From: Planctomycetota bacterium
GTDB lineage: Bacteria; Planctomycetota; UBA11346
Assembly: GCA_031426335.1 (NCBI GenBank)
Contig: JANPLC010000111.1
Span: forward strand, 2,384 to 66,383
Direction: 5' to 3'
DNA: 64,000 nt
The notes beneath the pieces are model-generated. The model had not been told where the DNA came from, did not search any database, and worked only from the letters and a program-made list of their open reading frames with translations. Of the stretch, positions 33,315-63,750 are shown piece after piece. The stretch's first letter is position 1. Every line of letters starts with the position of its first letter. The position numbers and the translations under genes were made by a program.

Positions 33315-33326
33315 GCCAACGCGGAT

Positions 33327-34373: not shown

Positions 34374-34376
34374 GGC

Positions 34377-40646: not shown

Positions 40647-41110
40647 GGCGAGTGATCAGTGGTGGAATGAGGGAAGCGAAAGTCCCAGGAACCACGGCGA
40701 AAGACCGGCCCGGAGGGCCGCGGTCCGTGTGTGTGGAGCAACCGGCGGCTGCTCTGACAACACCTGAGGTGTTACCTCATCGATCCGCTCGCATACCGGG
40801 ATGGTGACGCAGCGCCGCTCCAACGCGCGCGGCGATCACCGGTATCACCACCCGCACGAACACCATTCCTGGTGTTGCGGTGTCGCAGTCCGGCGGAACT
40901 ATCCGCCGCCATGCTCGGTCATTTTTACGGCCAAATTTCTATACCCGTTAACGCTGCGCATCTACTTATCATCACCGCAGCTTGCGTGTCCTAAGACTGA
41001 GCAACGAACTTGTCACAGCCCCACCAACCAACCGTTTCGCCGTGCGTGCCTGATGGCCGAGGTCACCTCGTCACCATCGGATGCACCTGAAGATCACCCG
41101 GGAGTTCACC

Positions 41111-42166
41111 ATGTCAGGCAATGCCGCACAACCCGCCGCCGCTACCAACGACAAGGAACTTGTCGCCCAAGCGCAGCAGGCTTTCGAGAACATCCGCGGC
41201 GAATTGGCCAAGGTCATCGTCGGTCAGGACCAAGCGATCGAAGAGCTAATCATCGCGATCTTCGCGCGTGGTCACTGCATGCTCGAAGGTGTGCCTGGTC
41301 TGGCCAAGACCTTGCTCATCTCGACGCTCGCCAAAGCGCTGCACCTGACGTTCAAACGTGTGCAGTTCACGCCTGACTTGATGCCCTCTGACATCGTCGG
41401 CACCGAAGTGCTGCAAGAAGATCCCGTCACCAAGGCGCGCATCTTCAAGTTCCTCAAAGGCCCGATCTTCGCCAACATCGTGCTGGCCGACGAAATCAAC
41501 CGTACGCCGCCAAAAACCCAGGCCGCGCTGCTTGAAGCGATGCAGGAGAAGAAGGTCTCCATCGGCAACGAGGAATACAAACTCGACCAGCCGTTCTTCG
41601 TCCTCGCGACCCAGAACCCCATCGACCAGGAAGGCACCTACCCGCTTCCTGAAGCCCAGCTCGACCGCTTCTTGTTCAAGATCTTCGTCGGTTACCCGAC
41701 GGATGAGGAAGAACTGGAAGTCATGCGCCGCGTTGCCAGCCCGGCGATGGCCAGCGCCGAGAAGAGCGTGAAGCAGGTTTTGAACGGCGAGCAGATCCAG
41801 GCCTTCCAACAGCTCGTGCTGCGCATCCCGGTCGCTGACCACGTGCTGCACTACGCCAAGGCGCTGGTGCGCTCGACCCGTCCGAAAGAAGAGGGCGCGC
41901 CGGATTTCATCAAGGAATGGATCTCGTGGGGCGCCGGCCCGCGCGCGTCGATCAACCTGATCCTCGCCGCCAAGGCGCGCGCCGTCTTGTACGGCCAGTT
42001 CCACGTCACCTGCGAAGACATCGATGCGGTCGCCAAGCCGGTGCTGCGCCATCGTATCGCCTGCAGCTACACCGCGACGGCGGAAGACATCACCACCGAA
42101 CACGTGGTGGAGAAACTCATCGAGTCGATTCCCAAGGACGAGAAGAAGCCGGTCGCGCGGAAGTAA
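41111..42166 (+). CDS. moxR: MoxR-family AAA+ ATPase
   Basis: Walker A LEGVPGLAKT, Walker B IVLADEINRTPPKTQAALLEAMQE, and the MoxR-typical length (~350 aa). Preferred start is MSGNAAQP at 41111. Confidence 0.9.
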   Translation: MSGNAAQPAAATNDKELVAQAQQAFENIRGELAKVIVGQDQAIEELIIAIFARGHCMLEGVPGLAKTLLISTLAKALHLTFKRVQFTPDLMPSDIVGTEVLQEDPVTKARIFKFLKGPIFANIVLADEINRTPPKTQAALLEAMQEKKVSIGNEEYKLDQPFFVLATQNPIDQEGTYPLPEAQLDRFLFKIFVGYPTDEEELEVMRRVASPAMASAEKSVKQVLNGEQIQAFQQLVLRIPVADHVLHYAKALVRSTRPKEEGAPDFIKEWISWGAGPRASINLILAAKARAVLYGQFHVTCEDIDAVAKPVLRHRIACSYTATAEDITTEHVVEKLIESIPKDEKKPVARK

Positions 42167-42233
42167 GGTTCTGATGAGCAAATCGCGGTAAACGCCGCGG
42201 TTTCCTGTCCGCCCTCACCAGCCCGGTCTGCCC

Positions 42234-43163
42234 ATGCCCTCCACTTACCTCGATCCCCAGGTCCTCGCCAAGGTCGGCAAACTCGACCTTAAGGCGAAGT
42301 ACGTCGTCGAGGGCTTCATCTCTGGCATGCACAAGAGCCCGTTCAAAGGCTTCAGTGTCGAGTTCGCGCAGCACCGCGGCTATGTTCCTGGGGATGACCT
42401 CAAGCACCTCGACTGGAAGGTCTACGCCAAGAGCGAGCGCTTGAACATCAAGCAGTACGAGGCCGAGACCAACCTCGTCACCACGCTGCTGCTGGATGCC
42501 AGCGAATCGATGGCCTATACGTCGCCCAATCGCAAGGGCGAGGCGAGTGCCAAGCTCGAATACGCCAAACTCATCGTCGCCGCGCTGAGCTACATCGTGC
42601 TCGGCCAGAGCGACGCGGTCGCGCTCGGCATCTTCGACGAAGAACTGCGCGAGTTCATTCCGCGTTCGACGCGCAAGGTGCATCTCAATCGTATCTGCGC
42701 CGCGTTGGAAAACATCGAGCCGCAGAACAAGACTGGCGTCGGCGACGTGCTGCACACCGTCGCCCAGCGCGTCGGTCGCCGTGGCATCACGGTCATCATC
42801 AGTGACCTGTTCGATAAGATCGAAGACATCCTCTCCGGCATCCAGCACCTGCGCCACGACGGCCACGAGGTCATCGTGCTGCATCTGCTCGACAAAGATG
42901 AGCTGACCTTTCCTTTCGAAGGCCTCGTGCAGTTCAAAGGCCTGGAATACGCCAATCAGGTGTTGTGCCAGCCACGCATGGTGAAGAAGGCCTACCTGGA
43001 AGAACTTCACAAGTTCCTCACCAAGATGAAGGCGATGTGCACCCGCAACGGCGTCGACTACGTGCAGGTCTCGACCGACACGCCGGTCGACATCGTGTTG
43101 TCGGCCTACCTCATCGGTCGTGAACGTGCGCTGATGTCCGGCGGACGTGGAGCGGGTCGCTGA
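42234..43163 (+). CDS. DUF58 domain protein (VWA-like, MoxR partner)
   Basis: 309 aa with DUF58 hallmarks (HRGYVPGDDLKHLDWKVYAKSERLNIKQYE). The canonical gene following moxR. Confidence 0.8.
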   Translation: MPSTYLDPQVLAKVGKLDLKAKYVVEGFISGMHKSPFKGFSVEFAQHRGYVPGDDLKHLDWKVYAKSERLNIKQYEAETNLVTTLLLDASESMAYTSPNRKGEASAKLEYAKLIVAALSYIVLGQSDAVALGIFDEELREFIPRSTRKVHLNRICAALENIEPQNKTGVGDVLHTVAQRVGRRGITVIISDLFDKIEDILSGIQHLRHDGHEVIVLHLLDKDELTFPFEGLVQFKGLEYANQVLCQPRMVKKAYLEELHKFLTKMKAMCTRNGVDYVQVSTDTPVDIVLSAYLIGRERALMSGGRGAGR

Positions 43164-45457
43164 TGGGCTTCCTCAATCTCCTGCTCGCCGGCTTCGCCGG
43201 TGCGGCCGCCATTCCGATCATCATCCACCTGCTCAACCAGCGCCGCTTCAAGGTGGTGGTGTGGGCGGCGATGGACTTCCTGCTCGCGACCATCGAGAAA
43301 AACTCGCGCCGGCTGCAGCTCCAGGATTTGATCCTAATGTTGCTGCGCGCTTTCGCGCTGGTGTTCCTCGCGCTCGCCCTCGCCCGTCCGACGCTGACCC
43401 CGGGTGGTCTGGACATGCTTGGTCGTCAGGGCGAAACCGCTGCGGTGATCGTGCTCGACAACTCGCTGTCGATGGGCCACCGCACCGGCAACGAATCACG
43501 CTTCGACGCGGCCAAACGCGCGGCGCTCGCCATCGTCGACCACTTGCCCAAGGGCGCTGGCGCCGCGCTGGTGCTGATGAGCGATGTGGCGGTGGATGAA
43601 ATTCCCGAACCGAGCCACGACGCGGCCTTTGTTCGCGCTGCTATTCAAGACGCGGTGTTGTCCGACGGCGGCACCGATGTCGCGGGCGGCATCAACAAGG
43701 CCTGGAGCATCCTCAAGGATACGAAAGCCCTGGCGAAAGAGGTCTACGTCGTCAGCGACATGCAGGGCAATGCCTGGCCCGCTTCCGGCGACGCCGGCTG
43801 GACCACCTTGTCGAACGAATTGACTGCGGCTAAGCCGGCGGTGCGCCTTTACTTGGCCAACGTCAGCGATGGCGCTGACAGCAACCTCAGCATCGCTGCG
43901 CTCATGCCGGTCGATGAACAAGTATCGACCGAAAGCGACGCGGCTTTTGTCGCCACGCTGCAGAACCACGGCGGCGGCGCAGCCACCAACGTCACCGTCG
44001 AACTGCTGGTCGGCGCGCCCGATGCGCCGCTCAACGAACCCCTGCGCGTCGCTGCCAGTGTGGTGGTCGACAAAGTCGACGGCACCGCACAAGTGCGCTT
44101 GGAAACCCGTTTCGCTGGCGGCGGTGATTACCGTATCGCCGTACGCGCTGCGCCCGACCGCCTGCCCGCTGACGACACGCGCTCGCTCGCGCTGCCGGTG
44201 GTCGAACGCATCAAGGTGCTGGTGATCGACGGCCAGCCGGGTGATGGCGGGACGTTCAATGGTGCTGGCGACTTCCTCAAAGCCGCGCTCAGCCCACGTG
44301 ATCCCAACGATGAAGCCAACAAAGCCCTGATCGACACCGAGGTCATCACCGTTGCTCAGCTCGGCGAACGCAGCCTACGCGATTACCAAGCGGTGATCCT
44401 TGCCAACGTCGCGGATCTGCCGACCGGACTGGTCGAAGGGCTCAAAACCTACGTCAAAGCGGAAGGCCGCGGCCTGATCATCTTCGGCGGCGACAACGTC
44501 TCGTCGGTGCGTTACAACCAACTGCTCGGCGGCAAAGAGGGCCTGCTCCCAGGTCTGCTCGCCGCGCGTCAGGTCGAACCTGATGTCGCGCCGAGCGGTG
44601 AGGAACCCGGCTTCGGCTTCGCCACCACCGACCTCGGCCATCCGGTGGTGAGTTTCTTCTCCGACAAGGATTCCCAACCGTTCCTCGCCGCGCCGCGTTT
44701 CACCCGCGCGCTCGGAATCGACATCGACACCAAAGACCTCGCGACGCTTGATCCCAAAGCCAAGACCAAACCCGACGACGTCCTCGGTGACAACAAAGTG
44801 AACATCGTCGCCAAGTTCACCGGCGGTCAGCCAGCGATCGCTGAACGTCTTGCCGGTCGCGGCCGCGTGCTGCTGTTCGCCTGCACGGCTGATCGCGACT
44901 GGGGCGACCTGCCACTGCGTCCGGCATTCTTGATGCTCGCGCGCCGCGCGGTGCAGCACGTCGCCGAAGGCCATCGCCAGCCGCGCACGCTGCAAGTAAA
45001 CGACCCGCTGGTTGAACTGGTCGGCATCAAAGCCGCTGGTGCGCAGGTCACCGTGCGCGATCCGCGTGGTGGTGCGCGTACCGTCGCCGCGGTGCCGACG
45101 CCCGCTGGCGATCTGGCGCGCATCGACTTCGCTGACACGCGTTTCTCTGGCTTTTACCACCTGAGCCGCGCGGCTGGCACGGGTGTCGGAAACAACGGCG
45201 ATGCCACCATCAGCAGCATCTACGCGGCCAATCCACCGCGTGGTGAAAGCAATCTCGACGCGCTCGACGAAGCCGGCGTGCGCGCGCTCTATCCCACCCT
45301 CGACTTCACCTGGCTCGATGGCCGTGGCGAGGTGGCTGCGGCCATCGACGGCAAACGGGTCGGGCGGGAGATCTGGCCCTTGTTGTTCATCCTCGCCTGC
45401 GCCTGCCTCATCGCTGAATCCGTCCTGGCCTTGCGCTGGGCCCCGAAGGGAGGCTGA
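43163..45457 (+). CDS. BatA-like protein: N-terminal aerotolerance-regulator BatA_N membrane domain + VWA domain + large C-terminal extension
   Basis: N-terminus MGFLNLLLAGFAGAAAIPIIIHLLNQRRFKVVVW matches the BatA_N consensus. MIDAS DNSLSMG. The 1-nt overlap (TGATG) with the DUF58 stop. Confidence 0.7.
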   Translation: MGFLNLLLAGFAGAAAIPIIIHLLNQRRFKVVVWAAMDFLLATIEKNSRRLQLQDLILMLLRAFALVFLALALARPTLTPGGLDMLGRQGETAAVIVLDNSLSMGHRTGNESRFDAAKRAALAIVDHLPKGAGAALVLMSDVAVDEIPEPSHDAAFVRAAIQDAVLSDGGTDVAGGINKAWSILKDTKALAKEVYVVSDMQGNAWPASGDAGWTTLSNELTAAKPAVRLYLANVSDGADSNLSIAALMPVDEQVSTESDAAFVATLQNHGGGAATNVTVELLVGAPDAPLNEPLRVAASVVVDKVDGTAQVRLETRFAGGGDYRIAVRAAPDRLPADDTRSLALPVVERIKVLVIDGQPGDGGTFNGAGDFLKAALSPRDPNDEANKALIDTEVITVAQLGERSLRDYQAVILANVADLPTGLVEGLKTYVKAEGRGLIIFGGDNVSSVRYNQLLGGKEGLLPGLLAARQVEPDVAPSGEEPGFGFATTDLGHPVVSFFSDKDSQPFLAAPRFTRALGIDIDTKDLATLDPKAKTKPDDVLGDNKVNIVAKFTGGQPAIAERLAGRGRVLLFACTADRDWGDLPLRPAFLMLARRAVQHVAEGHRQPRTLQVNDPLVELVGIKAAGAQVTVRDPRGGARTVAAVPTPAGDLARIDFADTRFSGFYHLSRAAGTGVGNNGDATISSIYAANPPRGESNLDALDEAGVRALYPTLDFTWLDGRGEVAAAIDGKRVGREIWPLLFILACACLIAESVLALRWAPKGG

Positions 45458-45459
45458 TC

Positions 45460-47841
45460 ATGGACCTCCTCCTGTGGTTGTTCACCTTCCAATCCGCCGG
45501 TGGTGGCGACACCACGATCGTCTGGCCGCCAACGCTGCCGAACGTCGCGACCCCGCTGATGAAGTTATTGTTCATCGGCTTGGCGATCGCGATTGCCGTG
45601 GTGGTATTCCAACTCTACCGCCGTGAGCCGGACTACGTCGCGCAGAAGCGCAAACGCATCCTTGCGACGCTGCGCATGCTCGCGGGCTTTGTCCTGCTCT
45701 TCATCTGCACTGGCGCTTTCCTGGAAGTGCAGCACCGCGAAGAAACCAAAGGCACGCTCGTGCTGCTGGTCGACCAGTCGCAATCGATGGGCATCATCGA
45801 TCGCAAGGGCGATGCCGGCGCCGACGCCGCGCTGGAAAAGGTCATCGGCATTGCGCCCGAGAAGGTCACCCGCAGCGAACAAGTGCAACGCGCTCTCGCC
45901 AACGAACAGGTGGCCTTCCTCAAGGAACTCTCCGAATCGTTTACCGTCGAAGCCTACACCTTCGGCCAGGCTGCCCAGATCAGCGCGCTTGAGCTAGCGA
46001 CTGACGATCCCGCCGGCCCGTTGGCCAAACTCGCCAAGCCCACCGATCCCGCGACGCAGCTCGGCGGCGCTTTGCGCGATACCGCGCGCCGGCTCAAGGG
46101 CCGCAAGATCGATGGTGTTGTGGTGTTCAGCGACGGTGGTTGGAACCGCGGTGAAGAACCGCTGCCCGCCGCCGAAGACCTCAACGCTCCGGTGTTCACC
46201 GTCGGCGTCGGTCAGCCGCGCACGCGTGACATCGCCGTGACGTTTGTCTCGTGCGAGGACGTGGTCTTCAAGGGTGATGCGTTCGCCTTGACCGTACGCG
46301 TGCGTTCGAGCGGCTTCTCTGGCACCACCGCCCGCTTAGTCATACGCCAAGGCGATGACGTGGTGCGCGAGATGGCGCTTGAACTCGACGACAGCAGCGA
46401 GCGTACCCACACCGTGGCAGTGACGCCGCGTGACGCTGGCACCTATACTTTCAGTGCTGAAGTGGAGCCGCTCGCCGACGAACTCTCGGCCGACAACAAC
46501 AAACGCGACCGCCCAGGCGTCACCGTGGTCGACAAGAAAATCCGCGTGCTGCTGGTGGAAGATTCGCCACGTTGGGAGACCCGCTTCCTCACGTCGATCC
46601 TCGAAGCCGACAAGACCCGTATCGAAGCGAGCTTCCTCTTGCGCCAAGCTGACGAACGCCTCGCGACGATCGATCGTCGCCACCTCCGCGCCTTCCCGGC
46701 GCTGCCGGCGGATCTGCGCAGTTACGACGTGGTGGTGTTCGGCAACATCGGCGTGGAGTTCTTCACTCAGGAAGAGCTGAAGAACCTCGCCAACTTCGTG
46801 CAGATGGAGGGCGGTGGCGTGTTGTTCATCGCTGGCCGCAATCGCCTGCCGGATGCGTATGAAGGTTCACCGCTCGCTGACTTGCTGCCGGTGGAGATTG
46901 AAAACCAGCCGAGCTACAGCGTCGACGATGAACTCGCGCGCACGCTGAAAACCGGCTTCCGCATGCAGTTGACCGCCGAAGGTAAACGCTCGTCGCTCAC
47001 CCGTCTTGCTCCGGAAGCGCGCGAGAACGACCTGATGTGGGAGAAATCCGACCTGATGTTCTGGCGCTATCCCGCCACGCGCCTGAAGTCGGGCGCCACC
47101 GCGCTCGCCACCATCGGCGCCACCGGCACTGGCCGTGGCCAGGAAGGCGAACCCGTCATCGCCATGCAGCGCTATGGCAAAGGCCAAGTGATCTGGATGG
47201 GCACCGATGAAACGTGGCGCTGGCGCTCCAAGCCAGGCCCGGAAGCGCACCGCCGTTTCTGGGGCCAGCTGATCGGCTCGCTGTCGCAGGCGCACCTGCT
47301 GGGCAAGACCAACCGCGTGCAGCTCGAAACCGACAAGTCGGAATACGTCATCGGCGATCGCGCGGCGATCACCGCACGCCTGCTCGACCAGGACTTCAAC
47401 CGCCGAGTCGACGATCAGGTCACCGCCATCGTCGAACGTGGTGCGCTGGGCAAAGAAGAGGTCGTGCTCGCCGCGGTGAAGGATCAGCCGGGTACCTTCC
47501 AGGGCGAGTTCGTCCCAGGCACCGCCGGCGAATACCGCCTAGTCATCAAGGACGAGGAAGACGAAGCCGAGCGCCTGTTCACCGCCGTTGCTCCACGCAT
47601 TGAGTTCGATGATCCGGGCATGCGCGCCGAACTGCTGACGCAGATCGCCAACGCCACCAAGGGCCGTTACGCCACCCTCGCGGATCTCGCCGACCTCAAG
47701 AAGGATCTCGCTGCGCAGGAACACGTCGCTGAACCACGACGTGAGGAACGTGCGTTGTGGAACGCGCCTGGCGTCATGATCTTGATCACTCTGCTGCTCG
47801 GACTTGAGTGGTTCTTCCGCAAGCGCTGGGACCTCCTATGA
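45460..47841 (+). CDS. membrane protein with VWA (MIDAS DQSQSMG) and a GATase1-like/ThuA-like domain (BatB-like analogue), C-terminal TM anchor
   Basis: 793 aa. N-terminal TMs and a C-terminal TM GVMILITLLLGLEWFF. Starts 3 nt after the previous stop. Confidence 0.55.
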   Translation: MDLLLWLFTFQSAGGGDTTIVWPPTLPNVATPLMKLLFIGLAIAIAVVVFQLYRREPDYVAQKRKRILATLRMLAGFVLLFICTGAFLEVQHREETKGTLVLLVDQSQSMGIIDRKGDAGADAALEKVIGIAPEKVTRSEQVQRALANEQVAFLKELSESFTVEAYTFGQAAQISALELATDDPAGPLAKLAKPTDPATQLGGALRDTARRLKGRKIDGVVVFSDGGWNRGEEPLPAAEDLNAPVFTVGVGQPRTRDIAVTFVSCEDVVFKGDAFALTVRVRSSGFSGTTARLVIRQGDDVVREMALELDDSSERTHTVAVTPRDAGTYTFSAEVEPLADELSADNNKRDRPGVTVVDKKIRVLLVEDSPRWETRFLTSILEADKTRIEASFLLRQADERLATIDRRHLRAFPALPADLRSYDVVVFGNIGVEFFTQEELKNLANFVQMEGGGVLFIAGRNRLPDAYEGSPLADLLPVEIENQPSYSVDDELARTLKTGFRMQLTAEGKRSSLTRLAPEARENDLMWEKSDLMFWRYPATRLKSGATALATIGATGTGRGQEGEPVIAMQRYGKGQVIWMGTDETWRWRSKPGPEAHRRFWGQLIGSLSQAHLLGKTNRVQLETDKSEYVIGDRAAITARLLDQDFNRRVDDQVTAIVERGALGKEEVVLAAVKDQPGTFQGEFVPGTAGEYRLVIKDEEDEAERLFTAVAPRIEFDDPGMRAELLTQIANATKGRYATLADLADLKKDLAAQEHVAEPRREERALWNAPGVMILITLLLGLEWFFRKRWDLL

Positions 47842-49586
47842 GCCGCGACATCCTCCTCCAGAAAATCGACGAAGTCCGCAGCCGGCAGCGCTCAGTCGCC
47901 ATCGGCCAGGGCGTCGCGCGCATTGTGCTCGCAGTCATCGGCCTGGTGCTGGCGTTCTTCTTGGTCGACTGGCTGATCCTGGCCAAGTCGACTCCCGGTT
48001 CCGGCGACCGTCTCGCGCGCGGCATCCTGGTGGCGGCGATGCTCGCCACGCTCGGCTGGGTGGTGTGGCGTTCGCTCATCCGCGTGCTGTTGCATGCCCC
48101 CGACGACGACGAGGTCGCACTCAAGGTCGAACGTGGCCATCCGGAATTGCGTGGCCGACTGATTTCGACCATCCAATTGCGCCGCAGCAGCACCGCCGGT
48201 GGTTCCAAGGAGCTGATCGCGGCGCTCGAACAGGACACTGTCTCTTTCGTCGGCGCCAAACATTTCACTGACATCATCGACTTGGCCCTGCTGAAGAAGG
48301 TCGCCCTGTGGGCGAGCGGCGTGATTTTGCTGTCCGTCGCGCTCGGCGCGTGGCGCAGTGACTTCACTGCCGCCATCTTTGCGCGTCTGGCCCTGACCGA
48401 GGCCGCCTATCCGACTGCGGCGAAAATCGTTGAGGTCTCCCCAGGCATCACCACCGCGCGCGGCGAACCGTTCACCATCCGCATCAAGTTGGATCCCACC
48501 GGCACGCTGCCGGAGAAAGCCAGCGCCACCATCCGCGACCTCTCGCCCGATGGTGCAGGCCGTAGCACCGAACTGACGCTGACCCGCGAAAGCCCCACGT
48601 CAGTCGAATACGTCGGCACCATCGATCAGGTGCTGAGCGATCTGGAGTTTCGTCCCGCAGCACACGACGCCTTGTGGCCAGTTTACGAGAAGATCATCGC
48701 GGTCGATCGTCCGGCAATCAAAGCGCTCGCGCTCGCCTACCGCTTCCCCGAGTACCTGAACAAGAAACCTGAAAACTCTGCCGTCGGCGACATCCGCGCA
48801 CCTGAGGGCAGCCACGTCACCATCACCGCGCGCTTCAACCGCCCGGTGATCTCGGCGAAACTCATCACGCGCAATGATCAGAAAGAAGAAAAGCCGCTCG
48901 ACCTGATGCTGCAAGAAGGCGGCGCGAGTGCCTCCATTGATCTGCCGATTCTGACTGACGGGTCGTGGAAGCTGCTCCTGCGCACCGCCGACCTCTTCGA
49001 CAACAAGAACCCCATCGACTATGTCATCGACGCGGTCGCCGACCGCGCGCCGACCGCGAAAATCTCCTTTCCCGCGCAGGATAAAACCGTCACGCGGTTC
49101 GCTCGCTGGCCGATCCGCTTCGCTGCGCGGGACGACCACGGTGTCGCCAAGGGTCGCTTGAAGTACGTCATCAGTACCGCTGACGAAGCCCTCGCCGGCA
49201 CTGGTGCCTTCACCGTCGACACCCAACCGACCAACGCAAAGAGCCTCGACCTCGCTGGTCTGGTCCAGGGCCAACCGCGTCCGGAAGCCGGCGGCGAAGT
49301 GGTCTTCGACCTGCGCACGCTCGGCCTGACTGGCGACTGCCGCATCACCTACTGGATCGAGGTGGAAGACGGCAAGACTCCGTCGCCGAACAAGGGCATC
49401 AGCCCGACGTACGTCTTCACCGTGGTCGAAGCCGCCGTGTTGGAGGAGATGCTCGAACGCGACCGCAACTCGCTGATCGACAGCCTCAAGACCATCCGCA
49501 CCAAGCAGAAGGACGGCCGCGACGGCGTCGACACTCTGCGCCGCGAACTCCAGGACGCTCCGGCTCCAGCGCCGGCCCCGAAGTAG
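47838..49586 (+). CDS. membrane protein with N-terminal TM hairpin and large extracytoplasmic domain (hypothetical)
   Basis: ATGA overlap with the upstream gene at 47838-47841. TMs IVLAVIGLVLAFFLVDWLIL and GILVAAMLATLGWVVW. Confidence 0.5.
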   Translation: MSRDILLQKIDEVRSRQRSVAIGQGVARIVLAVIGLVLAFFLVDWLILAKSTPGSGDRLARGILVAAMLATLGWVVWRSLIRVLLHAPDDDEVALKVERGHPELRGRLISTIQLRRSSTAGGSKELIAALEQDTVSFVGAKHFTDIIDLALLKKVALWASGVILLSVALGAWRSDFTAAIFARLALTEAAYPTAAKIVEVSPGITTARGEPFTIRIKLDPTGTLPEKASATIRDLSPDGAGRSTELTLTRESPTSVEYVGTIDQVLSDLEFRPAAHDALWPVYEKIIAVDRPAIKALALAYRFPEYLNKKPENSAVGDIRAPEGSHVTITARFNRPVISAKLITRNDQKEEKPLDLMLQEGGASASIDLPILTDGSWKLLLRTADLFDNKNPIDYVIDAVADRAPTAKISFPAQDKTVTRFARWPIRFAARDDHGVAKGRLKYVISTADEALAGTGAFTVDTQPTNAKSLDLAGLVQGQPRPEAGGEVVFDLRTLGLTGDCRITYWIEVEDGKTPSPNKGISPTYVFTVVEAAVLEEMLERDRNSLIDSLKTIRTKQKDGRDGVDTLRRELQDAPAPAPAPK

Positions 49587-49813
49587 AACCGCCGATCGAA
49601 CCACACGGACTCAAAGGGCGACGACATGACAGCAGAACAACACCCGCCATCGTCTATTTGAACCCATGTGTGCTGCCTCAGGTCTAGTCCTGGGCCTTTT
49701 CCTCTGCACCCTGTGCGTCTTTTTCGGTTAACTCTCCGCCTTCTGCTCCGCCTCGCCGATCGTCAGTAACAACCGCCGCTCCCGGCCGTTACCCATTTCC
49801 CGAGGGTCCACCT

Positions 49814-53831: not shown

Positions 53832-53907
53832 CTGACCCGGGCCTTGCGTCGCTGCGGGGCTGGGTGCGGATGGGTTCACATCTTTTTTCTCTCTGCGGGA
53901 TGCTTCC

Positions 53908-56900: not shown

Positions 56901-59900
56901 CAGCGAACGTCGCAGCTTTGTCGGCCGTGACGATTTGGTGCGCACGTTGCCACCGCTGGCTGCGCGCCAATTGCTCGATGCCGGTGATACCGCCGGCGCT
57001 GCCACCGTGCTGACGCGCCAGATCGGCACCAGCCTGGACGCCGACGTGCGCCGCACCGCCAACCTGGCGTTGGCGGATCTCTACCGTCTGGCGGGTTACC
57101 CGCAGGAAGCCGGCGAACGGTACAAGCGTCTGGAGCAACGCCCGGACCTCAGCGATGATCAACGTCAGGCGCTGCGCGATGGCCTGCAACGCGTGCGTGG
57201 TGCGCGCGCCGACGGCGCGGCCTTTCCGGTGTCGCTCGATGCCAACACCTTGATCGCCACCGGCGATCGTGCGCTGAGCGGCGGTGACGCCGCGCGGGCG
57301 CTGCGTTCCTACCAGCGCGCCATTGATCAGTACGGTGACGCGTTGCTCAAGCGCGATGAACGCACGTTGGTCGGCGTCGCCGCGCTGGTCGGCGAAAAGC
57401 TGCGTGGCCTTGATGCCGCTGGTCAAGAAGCCTACCGCAAACTCGCTGACCGTCGTGCTGACGAAGCACTCGCGCGTGCCGGTGGCGATCCCACCGCGCT
57501 CGGCGAAGTCGCCGTCGCGTATCCAGCAACTGGCGCTGCGGCGTCGGCGTTGCTGCGTATCGCCGACCTCGCACTCGAAGCTGGCCACGGCAACCGGGCA
57601 ACCGCCGCGCTCGCCGCGTTGTCCGCGGGCAGCGACCGCAAGCTGGGCGTGCAACTGGCCGCGCGACGCGCGTTCGCGCTGGAACTGACCGGTGAACGTG
57701 CTGGCGCCGAGGCCGCCTATGACGCGCTGGCCAAAGACTATGCCGACGTGCCGCTGATGATCGGCGGCGTCGAACGGCCGACGAAGCAATTTGTCGCTGA
57801 GCGCAAAGCGGCACTTGCCGCACGCACCGGACGCCAGGACTGGCCGACCGCCGGTGGTTCTTCCGCCCGCACTGGTCTGGGCCTGGGCACACCCGTCCCT
57901 GCCGCGCTGGTGAGCGAGACCATGCTGCCAGTGGCGTTGGCGCAGCAGGTCGCAGCGCATCGTTTCGCGCCGTCATCCTACCATCACTTGGCGCTGCAAC
58001 CGGCGGTGGTCGACGGCGTGGCTTACCTCGCCAGCGATGCCGGCCTGTACGCGGTGAACTTGAGTGACGGCACGCTGCGCTGGCGCGCCGATGTGGCACC
58101 GAGCGACGCGCCGGCGTTTGCCGGCAACTACGACGGCACGGTCAGCGTCGCCGACAGCTTGGTCGCTGCGCGCGTACGTCGAGGCGGTGCACGCGTGATC
58201 GAAGTGCGTGAAGCCAGCACCGGCGCACTGCGCTGGGCAAGCGCCACGCTGCTGGGTGCGAGCGACGCCATCAGTCCGCCGGCAGTGACCGACGGATTGG
58301 TCTACGTGGTGTTCAATGAACGCGACAACCGGTCGCGCAATACCCTCGCGGCCTTCGATCTGCGCGACGGTACGCTGCGTTGGCGGACGCCGTTGGCGGA
58401 CGGCGTCGCCAGCTTGGTGACCGCAGCGCAGCAGGAAATCGGCCTCGGCGAACACCTCGCCGCGCCGACCATTGCTGGCGGTGTGGTGTACGTCGCCACC
58501 GACATGGGTGGCGTGGTGGCGGCGGATGCGCTCACCGGCCGCGTCCACTGGGCCGCGACGTACCCGCGTTCCCGTCTTGATGCGGTGGCCAGTGCGCCGC
58601 TCATTCGGCGCCTGGCCAACCGCGCCCCGCGGGTAGTGGTGGCCGGTGAGACGCTCTACGTTGCACCGCGCGATACGCTCGCGCTGCTCGCCATCCGCCG
58701 CCTCGATGGCGCGGTGTGCTGGAGCCAAGCATTCAGCGATACACACGCGCTCATCGGTGTGGCTAGCGGCGCGCTCTACACTCAGGGTGATGGCATCACC
58801 TGCCTTGATGCGGCCACCGGTTCCGTGCGTTGGCGTTGGCGCAGCGGCACGCTGCACGGCGTGGCCGGACTTGGGATCGGACGGCTGTATGGCGCGACCA
58901 ACGAGGCTCTGGTCGAACTGGATGCGGCCGATGGTCGGATGGTTGGTCGACGGGCATGGAGCGAGTTCGCTCAGAGCGTACCGCTGGGCAACTTCATCGC
59001 GTTGAGTGACCGTCTGATAGCGGTGGGCGAAGACCGCGTCGTGGTGCTTGGCGCTGGTGACACCAAGACCGCCAAGCGGCAACAAATAGCACCACCCCCA
59101 ACCGCGACGCTCGGCACCACCGGTCTGCCGGCGGCACCGTTGACGCCGCCGTTGGCGCTGCGCTGGAACCTCAGCGCTGCGGGCGCGACGGCGCTGCACC
59201 GCGTCGGCAGTTCATTGTATGCGGACCTGGGTGATCGCCTGGTGCGCCTGGGTGACGACGGCGAACGTTTGGTGTGGTCGGGCGACAGCGCCGATGAGAT
59301 CGACGCGCTGGATACCGCTGGCGGCCTGCTGTTGTCGTTGCACGAACGCGCGCTGATCGCGCGTCGCGCGGATGACGGCCGTCTGGCCTGGACGCAGGCG
59401 CTGCCCATCGAAGACAGCGGCTTCACCCTTGATCGTGACGAAGAGCGCAAACCCAAGCGCCGTGGAGCGGTGCTACTGAGCGGCGACCAGTCGCTCGTCG
59501 CGCTCCGTCTCCTGGGCACCAACTCCGTGACGCTCTTCGATGCCGCCACCGGTAACCCGCGTGGACGTCTGAGCTATTCGGGAACGTTGGTCGCTTGCGA
59601 AGTGGCCGGTGGCCGCATCGTCGGCGTACGCCACACGGGCGAAAAACTCACCGTCGATGTGCGCACCATGCAGGGCGATGTGGTGTGGAGCGAGGAACTG
59701 AAAGCCCAAGTCCGCGAAGCGCGCCACGTGATCGCCGCTCTCGATGAAACGCGCACCACGTTGATCCTGGCGGGAGAACGCCTGACGGCGGCCATCGACG
59801 TGGGCGTCAAACCGGCAGTGCGTTGGGTGGAGACTCCGGAGATCGGCGAAGGGCCGAGCATCAGCTTCCTCAAGGACCGCATCGCGGTGTTCGCCCGCCG

Positions 59901-62900
59901 TCAGGGCCAGCAGTGGATGCTCCATCTTCTGGAAGCGACCACTGGCCGCCTGATCGCTTCCGTCGAGACGCAACGTCGCGATCGCCTAGAAGACGGTGAA
60001 AAGCCGATCTTCATCGGTGATCGTTGGATCTCGTTCGGCGAACAGAACGACCGCTTGTTGGTGATCTGCCGCGAACTCGCCACACCGGACAAAAAGCTGT
60101 GGAGCACCGACGTCGGCCACCGACATCAGAAGGGCTTGGTTGGAAGCGCAGTAGTCGGACAGACCTTGGTGCTGGTCAGCATCGATGAGGGACGGCGCTG
60201 CTCGTGGACTACCATCGAACTCAGCAATGGGCGCGTCAGCGGCACCGGTCGCGTCGATGGCATCGAACCCGCGGGACGCGAGGAACGCGTGGACGTAGCC
60301 GCGATCGGCAACCTGGTGGTGTGCGCGTCGAACCGCGGCGTGGTTGCGCTTGGCGGCCTGCCGCCGGCTGCCGATCCACTGAAAGCCGCGTTGGCAAAAC
60401 TGCGCCAGGGTGATGGCACGCCGACTGGTGATCTGCTACTGACGGTGCAGTCGCCGCCGGAAGCGCCGGCACTGGCGAGCGAAAAGCCGGTGCGTGTCGA
60501 TGGTCAGCTGAACGAGTGGAGCGGCGATGCCGCCATCGTGCTCGACCAGCGCCGTCAGGTGCGCGATTCAAACACGTGGAATGGTGCTGCGGATCTTTCG
60601 GCGCGCGCACGTGTGCAGTGGGATCCCGCGTACGTCTATGTCGCGCTGGAGGTCACCGACGATCGCTGGCAGCCCGCGGTCCCAGGCGCCAACCTCGACG
60701 ACGGCGACAGCGTGGTGCTTGGCATCGATCCCGATCCGACGCGCGACGGTGGCGAAGTGCAGCCCTTGGTGGTGTCGGTGGCGTTGGTGGATGGACGCAC
60801 GCGCATCGTGCAACGTTCCGGAACGGCCATCGGCCAGCTGAACGAAGACGATCAACCGGAAAACCGTGACGGCGAACAGCTGCATGCGCGCGTGATTCGC
60901 ACGGCGAACGGCTGGAGTGGCGAGATCGCGGTGCCATGGGCGATGCTGCGCGTCAATCCGAGCGAACGTCCAGGTTGGCGTACCGACCTGGGGCTCGGCC
61001 TGCTGGTCGTCGACCGCGACGGTGAGCGCAAACAAGCGATCGAATGGGGCGCCGGCTTGTCCGACCGCCTCAGCGATCGGCGCTTTGGCCGCGCCAAGTG
61101 CATCGACCTGACCGGCGAACGAATTGCTGGTTACCGCAAGTTCATCGACCTGCTTGGCGATCATCCCTATGCGTGGCGCTTCGCTCGCCGCATCGCCGCG
61201 ACGCACTTGGGTGTCGCTGGTCTACCTGGGCGCATCAGCGAGATCGAACGCTACGTCACCGCGCAGCCGCAGGCCGCGTCCACTGGGACGGCGCTCGCTG
61301 AGTTGGTGCGTCTGCGTCGCGCACTTGGTGATGAAGGTCCCGTCGCTGCGGTCGCGGCCTTTGCCGCCAAAGCCAAGGTCCCGCCGCGCCTCATCGGTGA
61401 TGGCGTTGGTCCGTCTGACAAAACCGGCAAACAAGGTCGGGCGCTGCGCCAGTGGGTGCGCATCGACGCGGAACGTCCGCCGCTCGAAGTGCTGATCCAG
61501 GTCCGCACCAAAGACAGCGACTGGAATCAACGCGCGTACTGGGGCCAGGATCTGATCCAATGGGGCGAGCCGCTGACGACACAACGCTGGCCGATGGGCC
61601 CGCTGCCCAAGCCTGGCACGTGGACCGCGTTGGTTATTCCGCTGGCAGCAATCGGGCTCGACGGCCGCGAGATCGACAATGTCAGTTTCAGCGTACACGG
61701 CGGTGACGTGAAATGGGGCGCGACCGAGTGGCTCGACGGCGAGAAGGTCACCACCTTGATCGATCCGGCGAAACCACCGCGCTTCGATCGCGGCGTGCAA
61801 GGCAGCGACACTGATGGCCGCAAGGCGCATGGTCTTGGCCCGCAAGGTGGCGAAGCGACGTTCCGTGTGGCCGACAACGGCGCGATCGCCGTCGATCTGC
61901 GTGGGCCGGCCGCGACGCAACCCGACCAGGCGCGCCTCCAGCGTTTCGCAGAAGCCGCGCGGTTGATCTCGCGCACCGATGAAGCGGTGGAAATGATGCA
62001 GTGGTCGGAGGCCATGCTCACCGGCGAAGGTGCCGCACGTGAACAGGCGCTGATCGCCCACTACCAAGCGTTCCTCGCCGCTGATCCGCAAACCCCGCAA
62101 GCCGCGCGTATGCTGACGCACCTGCGCCAGATGTTGGAGCAATGGACTGAGGGCAAGGACCCAGCGAAACGTGCCGCCGCGGTGACGCGCATCGGCACGC
62201 TGATGGACGACGTCAAGCTCTCGCGCGAACAACGGCGCGCGTTCCATGCTGGCTACGCCCCGGTGCTGATCGAATGGCGCGCCATCGGTTGGTTCGATCC
62301 GGGCAAGGGCGCTGCCAACCTGGGCGAAGCTCTGCCAGTCGAACGCGGGGCGCTCGATTTCTCGCAGTCTATCGCTCTCGGTGATGGACGCACGATCGGC
62401 TGGAAGGCCATCACCGGCGACTGGAACCGCGTGACCGCGGAAAAAATAAGCTCCAAGGAACGTGGTCGTTGGCCGGTGGTGTGTTTCGCCACCCGCATCG
62501 AAGTGCCGGCCGCCACCGAGGCCGTGCTCTACCTCGCTATCAATGGTCGCGCAGTCGCGCTGGTGAATGGCAAACGCCTCGGCGGCGTGGTCAGCGGCGA
62601 TGGTCACATGACACGCGACGCCATCGCGCTGCCGGTGAAGTTGGAGAAGGGGCTCAATGAGGTGCTGCTGAAACTGAGTGATCGCGAGGGCAACTCGCAG
62701 TTCATCTGCCGCTTCGCTGATCGTTCGGGAAAACCCATCGACGGCTTGGTGCCGCGTCTGCCACCGGATGTGGTGCGCGCGCACGTCGATGATGCGACCA
62801 CCGTGAAGCTGACGTTTTCCACCGCGGTGGATCCCGTCACTGCCGGCAACGTGGCCGCGTACGCACTCGACCGCGACGCCAAGGTCACCGCAGTCAAGGT

Positions 62901-63486
62901 CAGCAAAGAGAAAGACAAGGAGCCGCGTTCGGTGATTTTGACGGTGAGCCCGCTCAGCGGCTCGGCCGACTACACGCTGCGCATCACCGGCGTCACGGCG
63001 ACCAACGGCACGCCGACGGCCCCAGGAACGCGCGTGACGCTACGCCCCCCGAGCGCCGGCGATCGTGGTCTGCGCGCGGAGTTCTTCAGCGGTCGCGAGT
63101 TCACCGAACGCCTGACCGGACGCATCGATCCGATCGTCGACTTCGCCTGGGAGGACGGCGAACAACCCGATCCCGCCGTGCCGAGCGAGAGCTTCTGTGT
63201 GCGTTGGACTGGCTCGGTACAGATCTCCAAGGGTGGGCGCTGGAACTTCTTCGTCACCAGCGACGACGGCTGCCGCCTCTTCATCGACGGCAAGCAGATC
63301 ATCGATGCGTGGCGCGATCGCGCGCCTGAGGAATCTACCGGCACCACCGAACTGAAACACGGCAAACACGAGATCCGCCTGGAATATTTCCAAGGCGGCT
63401 CAGGGAAGGCGGCACACCTGGCATGGGAAGGCCCCGGCCAAGAGAAGGCGATCATCGCGGCGGAGTTCCTGACGCCGCCGAAGTGA
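53908..63486 (+). CDS. giant secreted multidomain protein (3192 aa): beta-sandwich repeats, TPR-like helical regions, PQQ-like beta-propeller, CBM9/DOMON-like module, Ig-like domain, C-terminal PA14 domain
   Basis: Single uninterrupted ORF with signal peptide MKPFALLLVLLCSLPLTAA.
- PQQ/BamB-like repeats (GLVYVVFNERDN...GTLRWRTPL; GGVVYVATDMGGVVAADALTGRVHWA).
- CBM9-like module (VDGQLNEWSGDAAIV...WDPAYVYVALEVTDD).
- PA14-like C-terminus (GLRAEFFSGREF...FCVRWTGSVQISKGGRWNFFVTSDDGCRLFIDGKQIIDAW).
- Three copies of a ~80-aa beta-sandwich unit. Confidence 0.8.
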   Translation: MKPFALLLVLLCSLPLTAADLVWPATHTGDQPPAGWEIQTGEGASLRFAAGDLVIQALPHRHALVSRELGIDGSDAKPLVITALVAADNARALGGLPTAIALWWDAENAVQIGLSGGQIEAVEHWDASRRRGWAQWIAGGTVGRASTEQPLYVNEAPAHVRLVVSSNDVAAAISADGVNWRVLATLPRVGTPLAKTPVRLVVGRGHVGDDKEKRRPALANDLRDIGVKEALTTRVADLTITNGAAALPRARLVAKATGFEDLREADLDATTVAQWHLLGPLPPSDKAYGIEEARDLSGGLPLIAGQDVRWKPYVGESPADRRTFSLKRAVKSEREHQVLYAATIITCEAPRYERVWFDGARAATLFVNGRQIAEKRMSWESDIVADRYVATVRLAAGQNLLLIRLKAAHDGQCRLALRHEAATPLQRIADLTQAIAAYGMDGDACVAAWLEISQWWEVLGQRRLATEALGRGLEREGLTGTQLDALSFARARLHGELRDEKAVLADIEELAKRRLLGEDGDRPTTRLNLVRLWERMGFPDRALGAAEELIKDTTIDASTLSEAGLERARLRVLLKQEAPIPGELRAIAARLPASDPLAFELHLAALRRDRDAAAALAVAVNDRARQARVFAVQAALAEEKNDAAGRVAALRKLITVSDGESTWESLQSELAEALAPSDRAGAISAYKAALDRAPAAAHPLVVAARKIAEAATGDAALGKWRAAAAQAALADSEAGARLLTDALKTPANLPTGDGEALTAPVITDFHVIGPFANPDFIAYSKPPVNPEKIDLNNQVQGKRWTRPGKEAYRDGILNLSALYNANDSVAFAYRAIAVAVAGDGELLLGSDDGLTVWFNGQKVHEDRDNRGVQPGQIRIPVKFTAGTNRILCMVQNGNGDWGLHLRIGGAATGSRGLAEILAMLEQDARRPRAAEALLEMVGGEVGSDRGEDATALSRLGLRALSDAPVAQAAMVRRLIDERRDRPRLLKDASGPVRWLLSASERRSFVGRDDLVRTLPPLAARQLLDAGDTAGAATVLTRQIGTSLDADVRRTANLALADLYRLAGYPQEAGERYKRLEQRPDLSDDQRQALRDGLQRVRGARADGAAFPVSLDANTLIATGDRALSGGDAARALRSYQRAIDQYGDALLKRDERTLVGVAALVGEKLRGLDAAGQEAYRKLADRRADEALARAGGDPTALGEVAVAYPATGAAASALLRIADLALEAGHGNRATAALAALSAGSDRKLGVQLAARRAFALELTGERAGAEAAYDALAKDYADVPLMIGGVERPTKQFVAERKAALAARTGRQDWPTAGGSSARTGLGLGTPVPAALVSETMLPVALAQQVAAHRFAPSSYHHLALQPAVVDGVAYLASDAGLYAVNLSDGTLRWRADVAPSDAPAFAGNYDGTVSVADSLVAARVRRGGARVIEVREASTGALRWASATLLGASDAISPPAVTDGLVYVVFNERDNRSRNTLAAFDLRDGTLRWRTPLADGVASLVTAAQQEIGLGEHLAAPTIAGGVVYVATDMGGVVAADALTGRVHWAATYPRSRLDAVASAPLIRRLANRAPRVVVAGETLYVAPRDTLALLAIRRLDGAVCWSQAFSDTHALIGVASGALYTQGDGITCLDAATGSVRWRWRSGTLHGVAGLGIGRLYGATNEALVELDAADGRMVGRRAWSEFAQSVPLGNFIALSDRLIAVGEDRVVVLGAGDTKTAKRQQIAPPPTATLGTTGLPAAPLTPPLALRWNLSAAGATALHRVGSSLYADLGDRLVRLGDDGERLVWSGDSADEIDALDTAGGLLLSLHERALIARRADDGRLAWTQALPIEDSGFTLDRDEERKPKRRGAVLLSGDQSLVALRLLGTNSVTLFDAATGNPRGRLSYSGTLVACEVAGGRIVGVRHTGEKLTVDVRTMQGDVVWSEELKAQVREARHVIAALDETRTTLILAGERLTAAIDVGVKPAVRWVETPEIGEGPSISFLKDRIAVFARRQGQQWMLHLLEATTGRLIASVETQRRDRLEDGEKPIFIGDRWISFGEQNDRLLVICRELATPDKKLWSTDVGHRHQKGLVGSAVVGQTLVLVSIDEGRRCSWTTIELSNGRVSGTGRVDGIEPAGREERVDVAAIGNLVVCASNRGVVALGGLPPAADPLKAALAKLRQGDGTPTGDLLLTVQSPPEAPALASEKPVRVDGQLNEWSGDAAIVLDQRRQVRDSNTWNGAADLSARARVQWDPAYVYVALEVTDDRWQPAVPGANLDDGDSVVLGIDPDPTRDGGEVQPLVVSVALVDGRTRIVQRSGTAIGQLNEDDQPENRDGEQLHARVIRTANGWSGEIAVPWAMLRVNPSERPGWRTDLGLGLLVVDRDGERKQAIEWGAGLSDRLSDRRFGRAKCIDLTGERIAGYRKFIDLLGDHPYAWRFARRIAATHLGVAGLPGRISEIERYVTAQPQAASTGTALAELVRLRRALGDEGPVAAVAAFAAKAKVPPRLIGDGVGPSDKTGKQGRALRQWVRIDAERPPLEVLIQVRTKDSDWNQRAYWGQDLIQWGEPLTTQRWPMGPLPKPGTWTALVIPLAAIGLDGREIDNVSFSVHGGDVKWGATEWLDGEKVTTLIDPAKPPRFDRGVQGSDTDGRKAHGLGPQGGEATFRVADNGAIAVDLRGPAATQPDQARLQRFAEAARLISRTDEAVEMMQWSEAMLTGEGAAREQALIAHYQAFLAADPQTPQAARMLTHLRQMLEQWTEGKDPAKRAAAVTRIGTLMDDVKLSREQRRAFHAGYAPVLIEWRAIGWFDPGKGAANLGEALPVERGALDFSQSIALGDGRTIGWKAITGDWNRVTAEKISSKERGRWPVVCFATRIEVPAATEAVLYLAINGRAVALVNGKRLGGVVSGDGHMTRDAIALPVKLEKGLNEVLLKLSDREGNSQFICRFADRSGKPIDGLVPRLPPDVVRAHVDDATTVKLTFSTAVDPVTAGNVAAYALDRDAKVTAVKVSKEKDKEPRSVILTVSPLSGSADYTLRITGVTATNGTPTAPGTRVTLRPPSAGDRGLRAEFFSGREFTERLTGRIDPIVDFAWEDGEQPDPAVPSESFCVRWTGSVQISKGGRWNFFVTSDDGCRLFIDGKQIIDAWRDRAPEESTGTTELKHGKHEIRLEYFQGGSGKAAHLAWEGPGQEKAIIAAEFLTPPK

Positions 63487-63502
63487 TTGCGGATCACCGT
63501 GG

Positions 63503-63637
63503 GGCGACTCGGTAACCGCAGAGACGCAGAGCACCGCAGAGGGCCGCAGAGCGCAGAAAACGGGTGGATAAAGCCGTCGAGTTTCGTCTCTGCGGCCCTC
63601 CTCTCACCTCTGCGTCTCTGCGGTTAACGAGTCGCTC
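63503..63637 (+). terminator. very long (~50-bp stem) imperfect hairpin immediately after the giant gene, probable operon terminator/structured element
   Basis: GGGCGACTCGGTAACCGCAGAGACGCAGAG...GGGCCGCAGAG (63503-63550) pairs with CTCTGCGGCCC...CTCTGCGTCTCTGCGGTTAACGAGTCGCTCC (63587-63637), with a 36-nt loop. It is followed by GATTTTGG. Confidence 0.45.
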
Positions 63638-63750
63638 CACGGCGATTTTGGTCAGGGGGTTCACTCTCCCCCGGCGTCTCGCCTGACCTCCCAGTAGCCC
63701 GCCGGGAACTCCGCCACACCATCCGCGCTTCACCCGTTGGGAAGTGCGCC

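Follow-up and report, generated by a model that had tools for sequence, protein, structure and literature searches.

Operons in which a MoxR-type AAA+ ATPase is encoded together with a DUF58 protein and with proteins carrying von Willebrand factor A (VWA) domains are very widespread, and clients of this machinery are known in a few cases, namely the pyrroloquinoline quinone (PQQ)-dependent methanol dehydrogenase, nitric oxide reductase, Rubisco and carbon monoxide dehydrogenase. For the modules of the Bat and RL3499 type, we know of no client. Here we report on a stretch of 64,000 nucleotides from a Planctomycetota bacterium (contig JANPLC010000111.1, positions 2,384 to 66,383; referred to below as the window, with a base composition of about 63% G+C), in which such a module opens a row of nine genes, called g1 to g9. 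The encoded families are known ones throughout, and the new part, judged from domain content and gene order, is a toroid protein and one or more NPCBM/PA14 lectin-like proteins attached to a MoxR-DUF58-VWA envelope operon.

In the MxaRSACKL system, MxaR (a MoxR AAA+ protein), MxaS (a DUF58-type VWA protein) and the membrane VWA proteins MxaC and MxaL are jointly needed for Ca2+ insertion into the periplasmic propeller of PQQ methanol dehydrogenase (PMC12276312). The MoxR protein RL3499 of Rhizobium leguminosarum, a member of the MoxR-proper (MRP) subfamily, has been reported as required for membrane/envelope integrity and cell morphology (PMC3893208), and in Borrelia the VWA domain of BB0173 has been mapped experimentally as periplasmic (PMC5700661). 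MoxR and VWA proteins are also found in ternary conflict systems, which have a bpMoxR-type ATPase, often with a GxxxTAKS P-loop, and effector or effector-associated domain (EAD) components (Kaur et al. 2020, PMC7159879); the MoxR-vWA-YebA system of Zhang and Aravind (2012) is a different one. Full-text literature searches returned no description of the extended cluster or of the pairing of DUF4175 with a toroid; an earlier note on this DNA had proposed a candidate, undescribed surface-structure assembly system. Nothing was found that combines MoxR, DUF58 and Planctomycetes, or MoxR, prenyltransferase, PA14 and VWA, and the literature matches for DUF4175 were unrelated apart from Acinetobacter baumannii AdvA.

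Gene content and conservation of the cluster

Open reading frame (ORF) calls and a reading of the junctions place nine ORFs in a row on the plus strand, from 41111 to 63486. They are the following, with transmembrane segments abbreviated as TM.

41111-42166, plus strand: g1, MoxR-proper AAA+ ATPase, predicted to be cytoplasmic (Pfam AAA_3 2.1e-63, AAA_lid_2 1.1e-16)
42234-43163, plus strand: g2, DUF58 (VWA-like) protein, predicted to be cytoplasmic (Pfam DUF58 5.9e-40)
43163-45457, plus strand: g3, BatA_N double-TM anchor, predicted periplasmic VWA domain, GATase1-like region and C-terminal TM (Pfam, NCBIfam, hydropathy)
45460-47841, plus strand: g4, second membrane-anchored VWA protein, with two N-terminal TM and one C-terminal TM (weak VWA match, DUF7408/DUF4350)
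47838-49586, plus strand: g5, DUF4175 protein split in two, N-terminal half (match to PF13779 at E 1.4e-11, exceeding the gathering score, over positions 200-391 of 825)
49814-51619, plus strand: g6, C-terminal half of the split DUF4175 protein, Sec-exported and rich in Q, A and E (ortholog C-termini against PF13779)
51616-52689, plus strand: g7, exported single-domain (alpha/alpha)6 toroid (Pfam SQHop_cyclase_C/N, Prenyltrans)
52686-53831, plus strand: g8, exported and rich in beta structure, ending in an NPCBM domain of the carbohydrate-binding type (NPCBM 1.9e-11, residues 241-370)
53908-63486, plus strand: g9, Sec-exported giant of 3192 amino acids (aa) (Pfam and structure-sequence matches)

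The genes are tightly chained, as the earlier note had described. Between g1 and g2 there are 67 nt, the g2/g3 junction reads TGATG (43161-43165), and a gap of 2 nt separates the stop of g3 (45457) from the start of g4 (45460). The sequences ATGA (47838-47841), GTGA (51616-51619) and ATGA (52686-52689) constitute the overlaps of g4/g5, g6/g7 and g7/g8, so that the overlaps at these three junctions and at g2/g3 are 1-4 nt long. Non-overlapping internal gaps are present at 49587-49813 (227 nt, g5-g6) and at 53832-53907 (76 nt, g8-g9), and neither is conserved, with the g5-g6 spacing being 10 bp at locus L005 and g8 and g9 overlapping at locus L001. Folding revealed no structured element in the 227-nt gap (z 0.24). 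Since the genes preceding moxR (33327-40261) lie on the minus strand, moxR starts a divergent unit. The common strand, the overlaps, the kept order and the closing of the gaps in orthologs argue, indirectly, for g1-g9 being one co-transcribed operon.

The conservation of the order was examined in a genome scan with one genome per species, which gave 44 loci that were analysed by tblastn, together with a handful of metagenome and plasmid loci. In all 21 genome loci with a toroid identity of at least 54%, the order and strand of g1-g8 are kept as far as the contigs extend, and g9 follows g8 in 16 of the 18 loci with enough downstream sequence. The whole nine-gene order is present on three metagenome contigs as well, with toroids that are 46-65% identical to g7. 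The refuting condition that the earlier note had set was not borne out: in all related genomes examined, the toroid, Q/A-rich, beta-rich and giant genes are syntenic with MoxR-DUF58-BatA, down to a toroid identity of 46-47%. A reverse test from g9 homologs (30-100% identity) gave the same picture: every full-length homolog with readable context follows the NPCBM gene, the toroid and the rest of the cluster, including one that is 30% identical and 2524 aa long. All close carriers of the cluster are uncultured, represented by metagenome-assembled genomes (MAGs).

More distant loci (a set of 24) were analysed with profile searches and Pfam, and in the Gemmatales loci a context of 10 kb was considered. 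In 15 of the 24, which belong to Gemmatales, Verrucomicrobiota and other MAGs, the toroid gene is directly preceded by a DUF4175-like gene. The order MoxR-DUF58-BatA-VWA2-DUF4175-toroid, with an NPCBM-like/PA14 protein of about 1060 aa after it, is found in two MAGs, one of Verrucomicrobiota (L048) and one of 'Deltaproteobacteria' (L046). The contig of L049 starts within a g4-like gene and carries the portion from there to the NPCBM-like gene in the same order; an NPCBM-like/PA14 protein is found downstream of the toroid at L030, L046, L048 and L049. On the basis of these comparisons, the conservation of the cluster is layered: g1-g4 appear as the widespread layer, g5/g6 as a DUF4175 addition, and g7-g8(-g9) as a toroid/lectin extension. 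As far as gene order can tell, of the novel links that between DUF4175 and the toroid is the most persistent, and g9 varies more than any other element.

A number of further arrangements were observed. At L033, L034, L041 and L042 (Gemmatales and others, about 3800-11000) a DUF4175-like protein of about 1600 aa is encoded directly upstream of a toroid paralog, and no MoxR, DUF58 or BatA was detected there within the 10 kb examined; at L033 a 1196-aa tetratricopeptide repeat (TPR) protein lies upstream, as in Gemmatirosa. Other Planctomycetota MAGs have a paralogous compact cluster (L026, 2528-11097, and L027-L029), consisting of a MoxR that is 40% identical to g1, DUF58, a protein of 730-745 aa whose C-terminus is of the g6 type, and a paralog of the toroid with 45-49% identity to g7. 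A CotH kinase-family gene (14393-16159) comes after the PA14 protein in the Verrucomicrobiota version at L048, and a gene of the 23S_rRNA_IVP family (four-helix bundle; 820-1299) lies between moxR and DUF58 in the orthologous cluster at L005. Plasmid searches with DUF4175 found Gemmatirosa alone.

The assignment of the first four genes in the earlier note, to a MoxR AAA+ protein, DUF58, a BatA_N plus VWA protein and a second VWA membrane protein, agrees with the Pfam results. The Walker A (GVPGLAKT) and Walker B (IVLADE) motifs of g1 are intact, and its hydropathy profile has no transmembrane segment. DUF58 comes directly after moxR in every locus extending that far, and the DxSxS motif of g2 (DASES), which is of the metal ion-dependent adhesion site (MIDAS) type, is kept in 13 aligned sequences (the window and 12 orthologs). 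g3 matches BatA (2.8e-14), VWA_2 (3.3e-15) and TIGR02226 (3e-17), with TM segments at 6-24, 56-74 and about 733-761, and the MIDAS motifs of g3 (DNSLS) and g4 (DQSQS) are both kept in orthologs. With 764-793 aa, g3 and g4 are long forms. The ATPase motifs, the adjacent DUF58 gene, and the BatA_N anchor with MIDAS-bearing VWA domains are all those of a MoxR-proper/DUF58/VWA module. From the positive-inside rule, g3, g4 and g5 are predicted to be mostly periplasmic, which is consistent with the TIGR02226 match on g3 and with the periplasmic VWA domain mapped in Borrelia BB0173.

We now consider the five genes that follow, which the earlier note had placed outside any known Bat operon. This holds for the toroid/lectin part, which is new, but g5 and g6 are the halves of a DUF4175 protein, a family that is linked to MoxR-DUF58-BatA elsewhere. 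g5, previously described as an anonymous membrane protein, matches DUF4175 (see the list above), and its orthologs carry the name 'DUF4175 family protein'. In the AlphaFold2 (AF2) model of g5 (pLDDT 83.9), a helical insert separates the first two TM helices from the third, after which come three sandwiches like those of immunoglobulin (Ig) and macroglobulin (MG) domains, and a terminal helix. The insert has an invariant motif of the type ERxHPELRGRLISTIQL, and the conserved loop of about 70 residues (78-145) is predicted to be cytoplasmic. Foldseek searches with this model returned Ig/MG-domain arrays, which are generic matches that indicate no function. As to g6, which contains 19.5% Q and 17.8% A, the whole protein has no Pfam match, and its match to PF13779 in the window covers positions 703-763 of 825 with an E-value of 0.03. 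Its conserved C-terminus (W.V.L.P.ERE.L....FP.RYE..L..YY..LA in the ortholog alignment), however, matches the C-terminal part of PF13779 in 6 of 15 orthologs, the best with 3.4e-12. Moreover, fused g5+g6 proteins are encoded at L046 ('Deltaproteobacteria' MAG, 1189 aa), L050 (Gemmatirosa, 1268 aa) and L033 (Gemmatales, about 1600 aa). The match of g5, the C-terminal matches in the g6 family and the fused proteins together lead us to read g5 and g6 as a split DUF4175 protein, collinear with the Pfam model from the N-terminal TM region through a beta-rich middle and a low-complexity stretch to the conserved C-terminus, and with the match spread over two genes.

Two proteins considered as distant relatives of g5 (P0180 and P0181) were set aside for their different, helical-tailed architecture, and an apparent g6-g7 fusion ORF at L015 was rejected as a read-through in an alternative frame. 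The strong AT skew of the window at 50001-52000 (+0.42) is limited to g6 and is explained by its Q/A/E/K-rich coding. The only experimentally studied DUF4175-annotated protein returned by the literature search is A. baumannii AdvA, an essential protein of cell division in which the DUF4175 match is N-terminal, before a transposon-tolerant region (PMC7481262).

That g7 is an alpha-toroid, as proposed in the earlier note, is borne out by Pfam, which finds squalene-cyclase/prenyltransferase repeats, and by the AF2 model, which is a single (alpha/alpha)6 barrel (pLDDT 88.5); a start at ATG 51625 is equally possible. Foldseek gave TM-scores of about 0.6 at 15% identity to single-domain proteins resembling squalene-hopene cyclase, to AprG, to prenyltransferase beta subunits, to GH76 and to cellobiose epimerase, and the sequence matches to solved cyclases and prenyltransferases are limited to short stretches. 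In the alignment there is no DxDD motif of a class II cyclase, the conserved acidic patch being xDDDLS. Prenyltransferases have a Zn-binding D/C/H site and an alpha-subunit partner, and both enzyme classes use isoprenoid substrates in the cytoplasm or membrane. With the missing DxDD, the single barrel, the signal peptide and the generic structural matches, g7 is unlikely to be a cyclase or prenyltransferase enzyme of these classes. The toroid family is large, with 3436 matches among the 8000 candidates scored, and an exact-sequence look-up of g7 found no record.

The proteins g6, g7, g8 and g9 each start with a signal peptide ending A↓AD. g8 is exported and beta-rich, as previously noted, and in addition has the NPCBM domain, which is also called in its orthologs; a sequence search found no PDB relative. 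g9 is built from CBM35/RhaB_D2-like jelly rolls, helical repeat regions and a BamB/PQQ-like propeller (about 1360-1716), with CBM9 (2216-2387), Big_5 (2959-3036) and PA14 (3053-3190) in its C-terminal part. The PQQ-propeller/TPR/PA14 description in the earlier note is thus retained for the propeller (PQQ_2 3e-23) and for PA14 (3e-21), and TPR is weakly supported (TPR_7, E 0.035). The PA14 domain matches that of C. thermocellum RsgI3 with 2e-39, and the propeller matches BamB structures with 2e-7. Compared with PQQ dehydrogenases (TIGR03075), the propeller scores 34 bits against a cut-off of 480, and over positions 63-153 only. Orthologs of g9 range from 2345 to 3809 aa, and PA14 is absent from some of them.

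Pfam and NCBIfam domain searches found no secretin, no type I, II or IX secretion system (T1SS/T2SS/T9SS), no sortase, no PEP-CTERM and no outer-membrane anchor domain in the cluster. Since g6-g9 have only Sec signal peptides, the periplasm is the default location, and together with the missing secretion and anchoring genes this leads us to read the products as an envelope/periplasmic complex. Nothing in the cluster indicates export past the inner membrane or anchoring, and a 'surface structure' therefore stays speculation.

A possible envelope scaffold and the alternatives to it

The reading that we favour, and hold to be probable though not strongly so, is that the cluster is one co-inherited, three-layer operon for an envelope scaffold serving carbohydrate-binding proteins, with the giant as a lineage-specific terminal client. 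A MoxR hexamer and the DUF58 VWA adaptor would be located in the cytoplasm and act on g3, g4 and g5 in the inner membrane by way of the short loops that these expose to the cytoplasm, while the MIDAS-bearing VWA domains of g3 and g4 and the Ig-like arrays of g5 would face the periplasm. These domains and arrays would, with the toroid and the long spacer of g6, make up the scaffold, which would hold or mature the carbohydrate-binding g8 and g9. The toroid, translationally coupled to g6, would be the constant partner of DUF4175, and the giant would be dispensable and not the reason for the machine. Among the candidate activities, the analogy with MxaRSACKL suggests the loading of divalent metals. 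The hydropathy profile, the signal-peptide sequences and the TIGR02226 match on g3 all fit this topology, and a functional linkage of the cluster genes is likely.

It should be stressed that several points weigh against this reading. At L021 and L022, g1-g8 are present and g9 is absent, with a second membrane toroid following g8 at L021 and LeuRS and other genes at L022. In Gemmatirosa, g7-g9 are missing from the MoxR-DUF58-BatA-DUF4175 core, which has a g4-like gene in its vicinity; g1-g4 function alone in Rhizobium, and the Gemmatales loci in which a DUF4175-like gene adjoins the toroid show no MoxR within 10 kb. A promoter could sit inside the 227-bp gap between g5 and g6. Furthermore, the toroid fold as modelled points to no specific activity, the g9 propeller is by its sequence BamB-like and not a demonstrated quinoprotein, and metal loading is pure analogy.

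Some of these points are accounted for if g1-g6 are a general envelope-integrity module and g7-g9 an unrelated periplasmic glycan-binding set, two independent neighbours kept adjacent by shared descent. The Gemmatirosa and Rhizobium loci, the gaps instead of overlaps at g5/g6 and g8/g9, and the two loci without g9 would all suit this explanation. We nevertheless regard it as unlikely, given the 4-nt overlaps at g6/g7 and g7/g8, the toroids that follow a DUF4175-like gene in several phyla with an identity of 29-38%, too distant for passive synteny, the repetition of the order MoxR-DUF58-BatA-VWA2-DUF4175-toroid-PA14 in Verrucomicrobiota and 'Deltaproteobacteria' MAGs, and the recovery of the whole cluster by a g9-seeded search. 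The explanation put forward in the earlier note was instead that the MoxR/VWA machinery is dedicated to the maturation, export or surface anchoring of the giant, and thereby builds a new cell-surface structure. The giant is indeed syntenic in 16 of the 18 informative loci and in the reverse test, there is in MxaRSACKL a precedent for one MoxR/VWA set serving one periplasmic propeller client, and the lectin-type modules PA14, CBM9 and NPCBM would suit an outward-facing binder. But g1-g8 persist without the giant at L021 and L022, the Gemmatirosa core does so without g7-g9, the length of the giant varies widely and PA14 is lost in some orthologs, and in other phyla the PA14 protein of about 1060 aa takes its place. 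The cluster also shows Sec signal peptides only, with no secretion-system, sorting or anchor genes or domains seen, which speaks against the export or anchoring part. Dedication to the giant is not supported by the loci compared, and we think it quite improbable.

A conflict (defence) system centred on MoxR and vWA, of the ternary type with a beta-propeller, was also considered, since MoxR, VWA and a propeller-containing protein are encoded together in those systems (PMC7159879) as they are here, and g1 has a weak cross-match to the bpMoxR model (1.9e-12, 47 bits). However, g1 reaches 212 bits on the classical AAA_3 model, its P-loop is the classical GVPGLAKT and not the GxxxTAKS variant (PMC7159879), the VWA proteins are membrane proteins of the BatA type, and no effector or EAD domains were found. 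PADLOC gave no match for any of the nine proteins, and the synteny is stable and vertical and not patchy. This explanation was rejected, and the chance of its being correct is very slight.

Returning to the envelope scaffold, its significance would lie in providing candidate partners for the Bat-type module inside the operon itself, namely the split DUF4175 protein, the toroid and the lectin-like proteins, in an arrangement that recurs across phyla. It would also give DUF4175 a first genomic context, the pair that its gene forms with the toroid gene being conserved in Planctomycetota and Verrucomicrobiota. A more far-reaching version, which we consider doubtful, is an undescribed envelope-spanning machine of the Planctomycetes-Verrucomicrobia-Chlamydiae (PVC) group, in which a cytoplasmic motor of MoxR and DUF58 would operate by way of the BatA-type VWA proteins and DUF4175, the toroid would dock on the conserved C-terminal motif of DUF4175, and large periplasmic or surface glycan-capturing proteins would be assembled or metal-loaded. 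Capture and uptake of whole polysaccharides have been reported for Planctomycetes, and such a machine, if real, could underlie them.

Hairpins and neighbouring genes

Two features flank the cluster.

40262-41110, no strand: divergent intergenic region before moxR, with a long hairpin at 40540-40649 (flanking strands, folding)
63493-63646, plus strand: long palindromic hairpin followed by UUUU, terminator-like and one of a small family of palindromic repeats (dG -113.6 kcal/mol, z -12)

The hairpin after g9 is formed by arms at 63493-63551 and 63588-63646, and it may well terminate or stabilise the transcript. At L057, a relative with 81% identity, a hairpin is found at the same place 3' of g9 (2555-2722), with the stem pairs kept and compensatory changes included. 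The earlier note had spoken of a single massive hairpin; its size stands, but it is not unique. A related palindrome lies between g7 and g8 at L012 (10985-11225), as a double copy with CCGCAGAGACGCAGAGC... arms as in the window (dG -174), and a single arm is found at L056 (874-905), about 2 kb from another MoxR-DUF58 pair. An exact-pattern metagenome scan for the hairpin gave two stretches only. Within the window, the hairpin at 40540-40649 is of different sequence (dG -83.6 kcal/mol, z -11), and a further long intergenic hairpin at 12762-12849 is unrelated in sequence to that after g9. The relatives at L012 and L056 together with the unrelated hairpins of the window indicate a class of intergenic palindromic elements and not an operon-specific device; the source genome seems to carry long palindromes between its genes as a general feature.

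No sigma-70-like consensus was found in the scan of 40262-41110, the promoter and terminator consensus scans gave counts at or under shuffle expectation, and the Rfam and tRNA scans had no matches. Upstream of the cluster lies an island of the flagellin-glycosylation type (24804-40261), with two flagellins that are unusually long at about 850 aa (24804-27344 and 27671-30238, both on the plus strand) and a Maf/MptE-like protein (30313-32187). The minus strand of the island carries nonulosonic-acid genes, which comprise a fusion of NeuB with a cytidylyltransferase, a UDP-GlcNAc 2-epimerase, a PseB-like Polysacc_synt_2 protein, a GNAT, a methyltransferase and a CBS-nucleotidyltransferase.

Comparison with known systems

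With the Bacteroides aerotolerance (Bat) operon and the corresponding spirochaete genes (Leptospira Bat, Borrelia BB0170-BB0176; PMC5700661, PMC3557215), the cluster has MoxR, DUF58, a BatA_N protein with periplasmic VWA and a second VWA protein in common. The cluster differs from a Bacteroides-type Bat operon in that the nine proteins gave no BatD-family or significant TPR match, and no separate TPR proteins BatC/BatE were found. In addition, g3 and g4 are long, with GATase1-like regions and a C-terminal TM, and the DUF4175, toroid and lectin genes are added. From the ternary conflict systems the cluster is set apart by the classical P-loop and AAA_3 match, the BatA-type membrane VWA proteins and the lack of effector domains discussed above.

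A one-to-one correspondence is seen for the broadly conserved operon of Rhizobium leguminosarum (MoxR/DUF58/BatA_N-DUF4159/GATase1-like), the four genes of which match g1-g4 in the same order, with profile E-values of 4e-74, 1.6e-19, 5e-16 and 1.3e-18. The locus compared (L052) is inferred to be the ortholog of RL3499-RL3502, from gene content and not from locus tags. The fourth Rhizobium gene, RL3502 by this inference, is GATase1-like and not DUF4175, and it matches g4. The third Rhizobium protein ends in DUF4159, which g3 lacks, and the operon ends after the four genes and lacks DUF4175, toroid, NPCBM and giant genes.

The families of g1-g6 are found together on plasmid 1 of Gemmatirosa kalamazoonensis, in the order VWA2 ... 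TPR protein, MoxR, DUF58, BatA and a fused 1268-aa DUF4175 protein. The N-terminus of the latter is 29% identical to g5, and its C-terminal part matches PF13779. Here DUF4175 is not split, the g4-like gene has moved to a position upstream, and MacB-type permeases occupy the place of the toroid, NPCBM and giant genes.

Finally, the cluster resembles MxaRSACKL, where genes for a MoxR protein, a DUF58-type protein and membrane VWA proteins accompany that of a periplasmic beta-propeller client, the PQQ methanol dehydrogenase (PMC12276312). DUF4175 and the toroid have no counterpart among the Mxa components named in that work. The window cluster has no MxaF, MxaI, MxaJ or PQQ genes, and its propeller is part of a lectin-rich protein of 3192 aa. 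By analogy, MxaRSACKL would nevertheless be the closest mechanistic precedent for the machinery described here.

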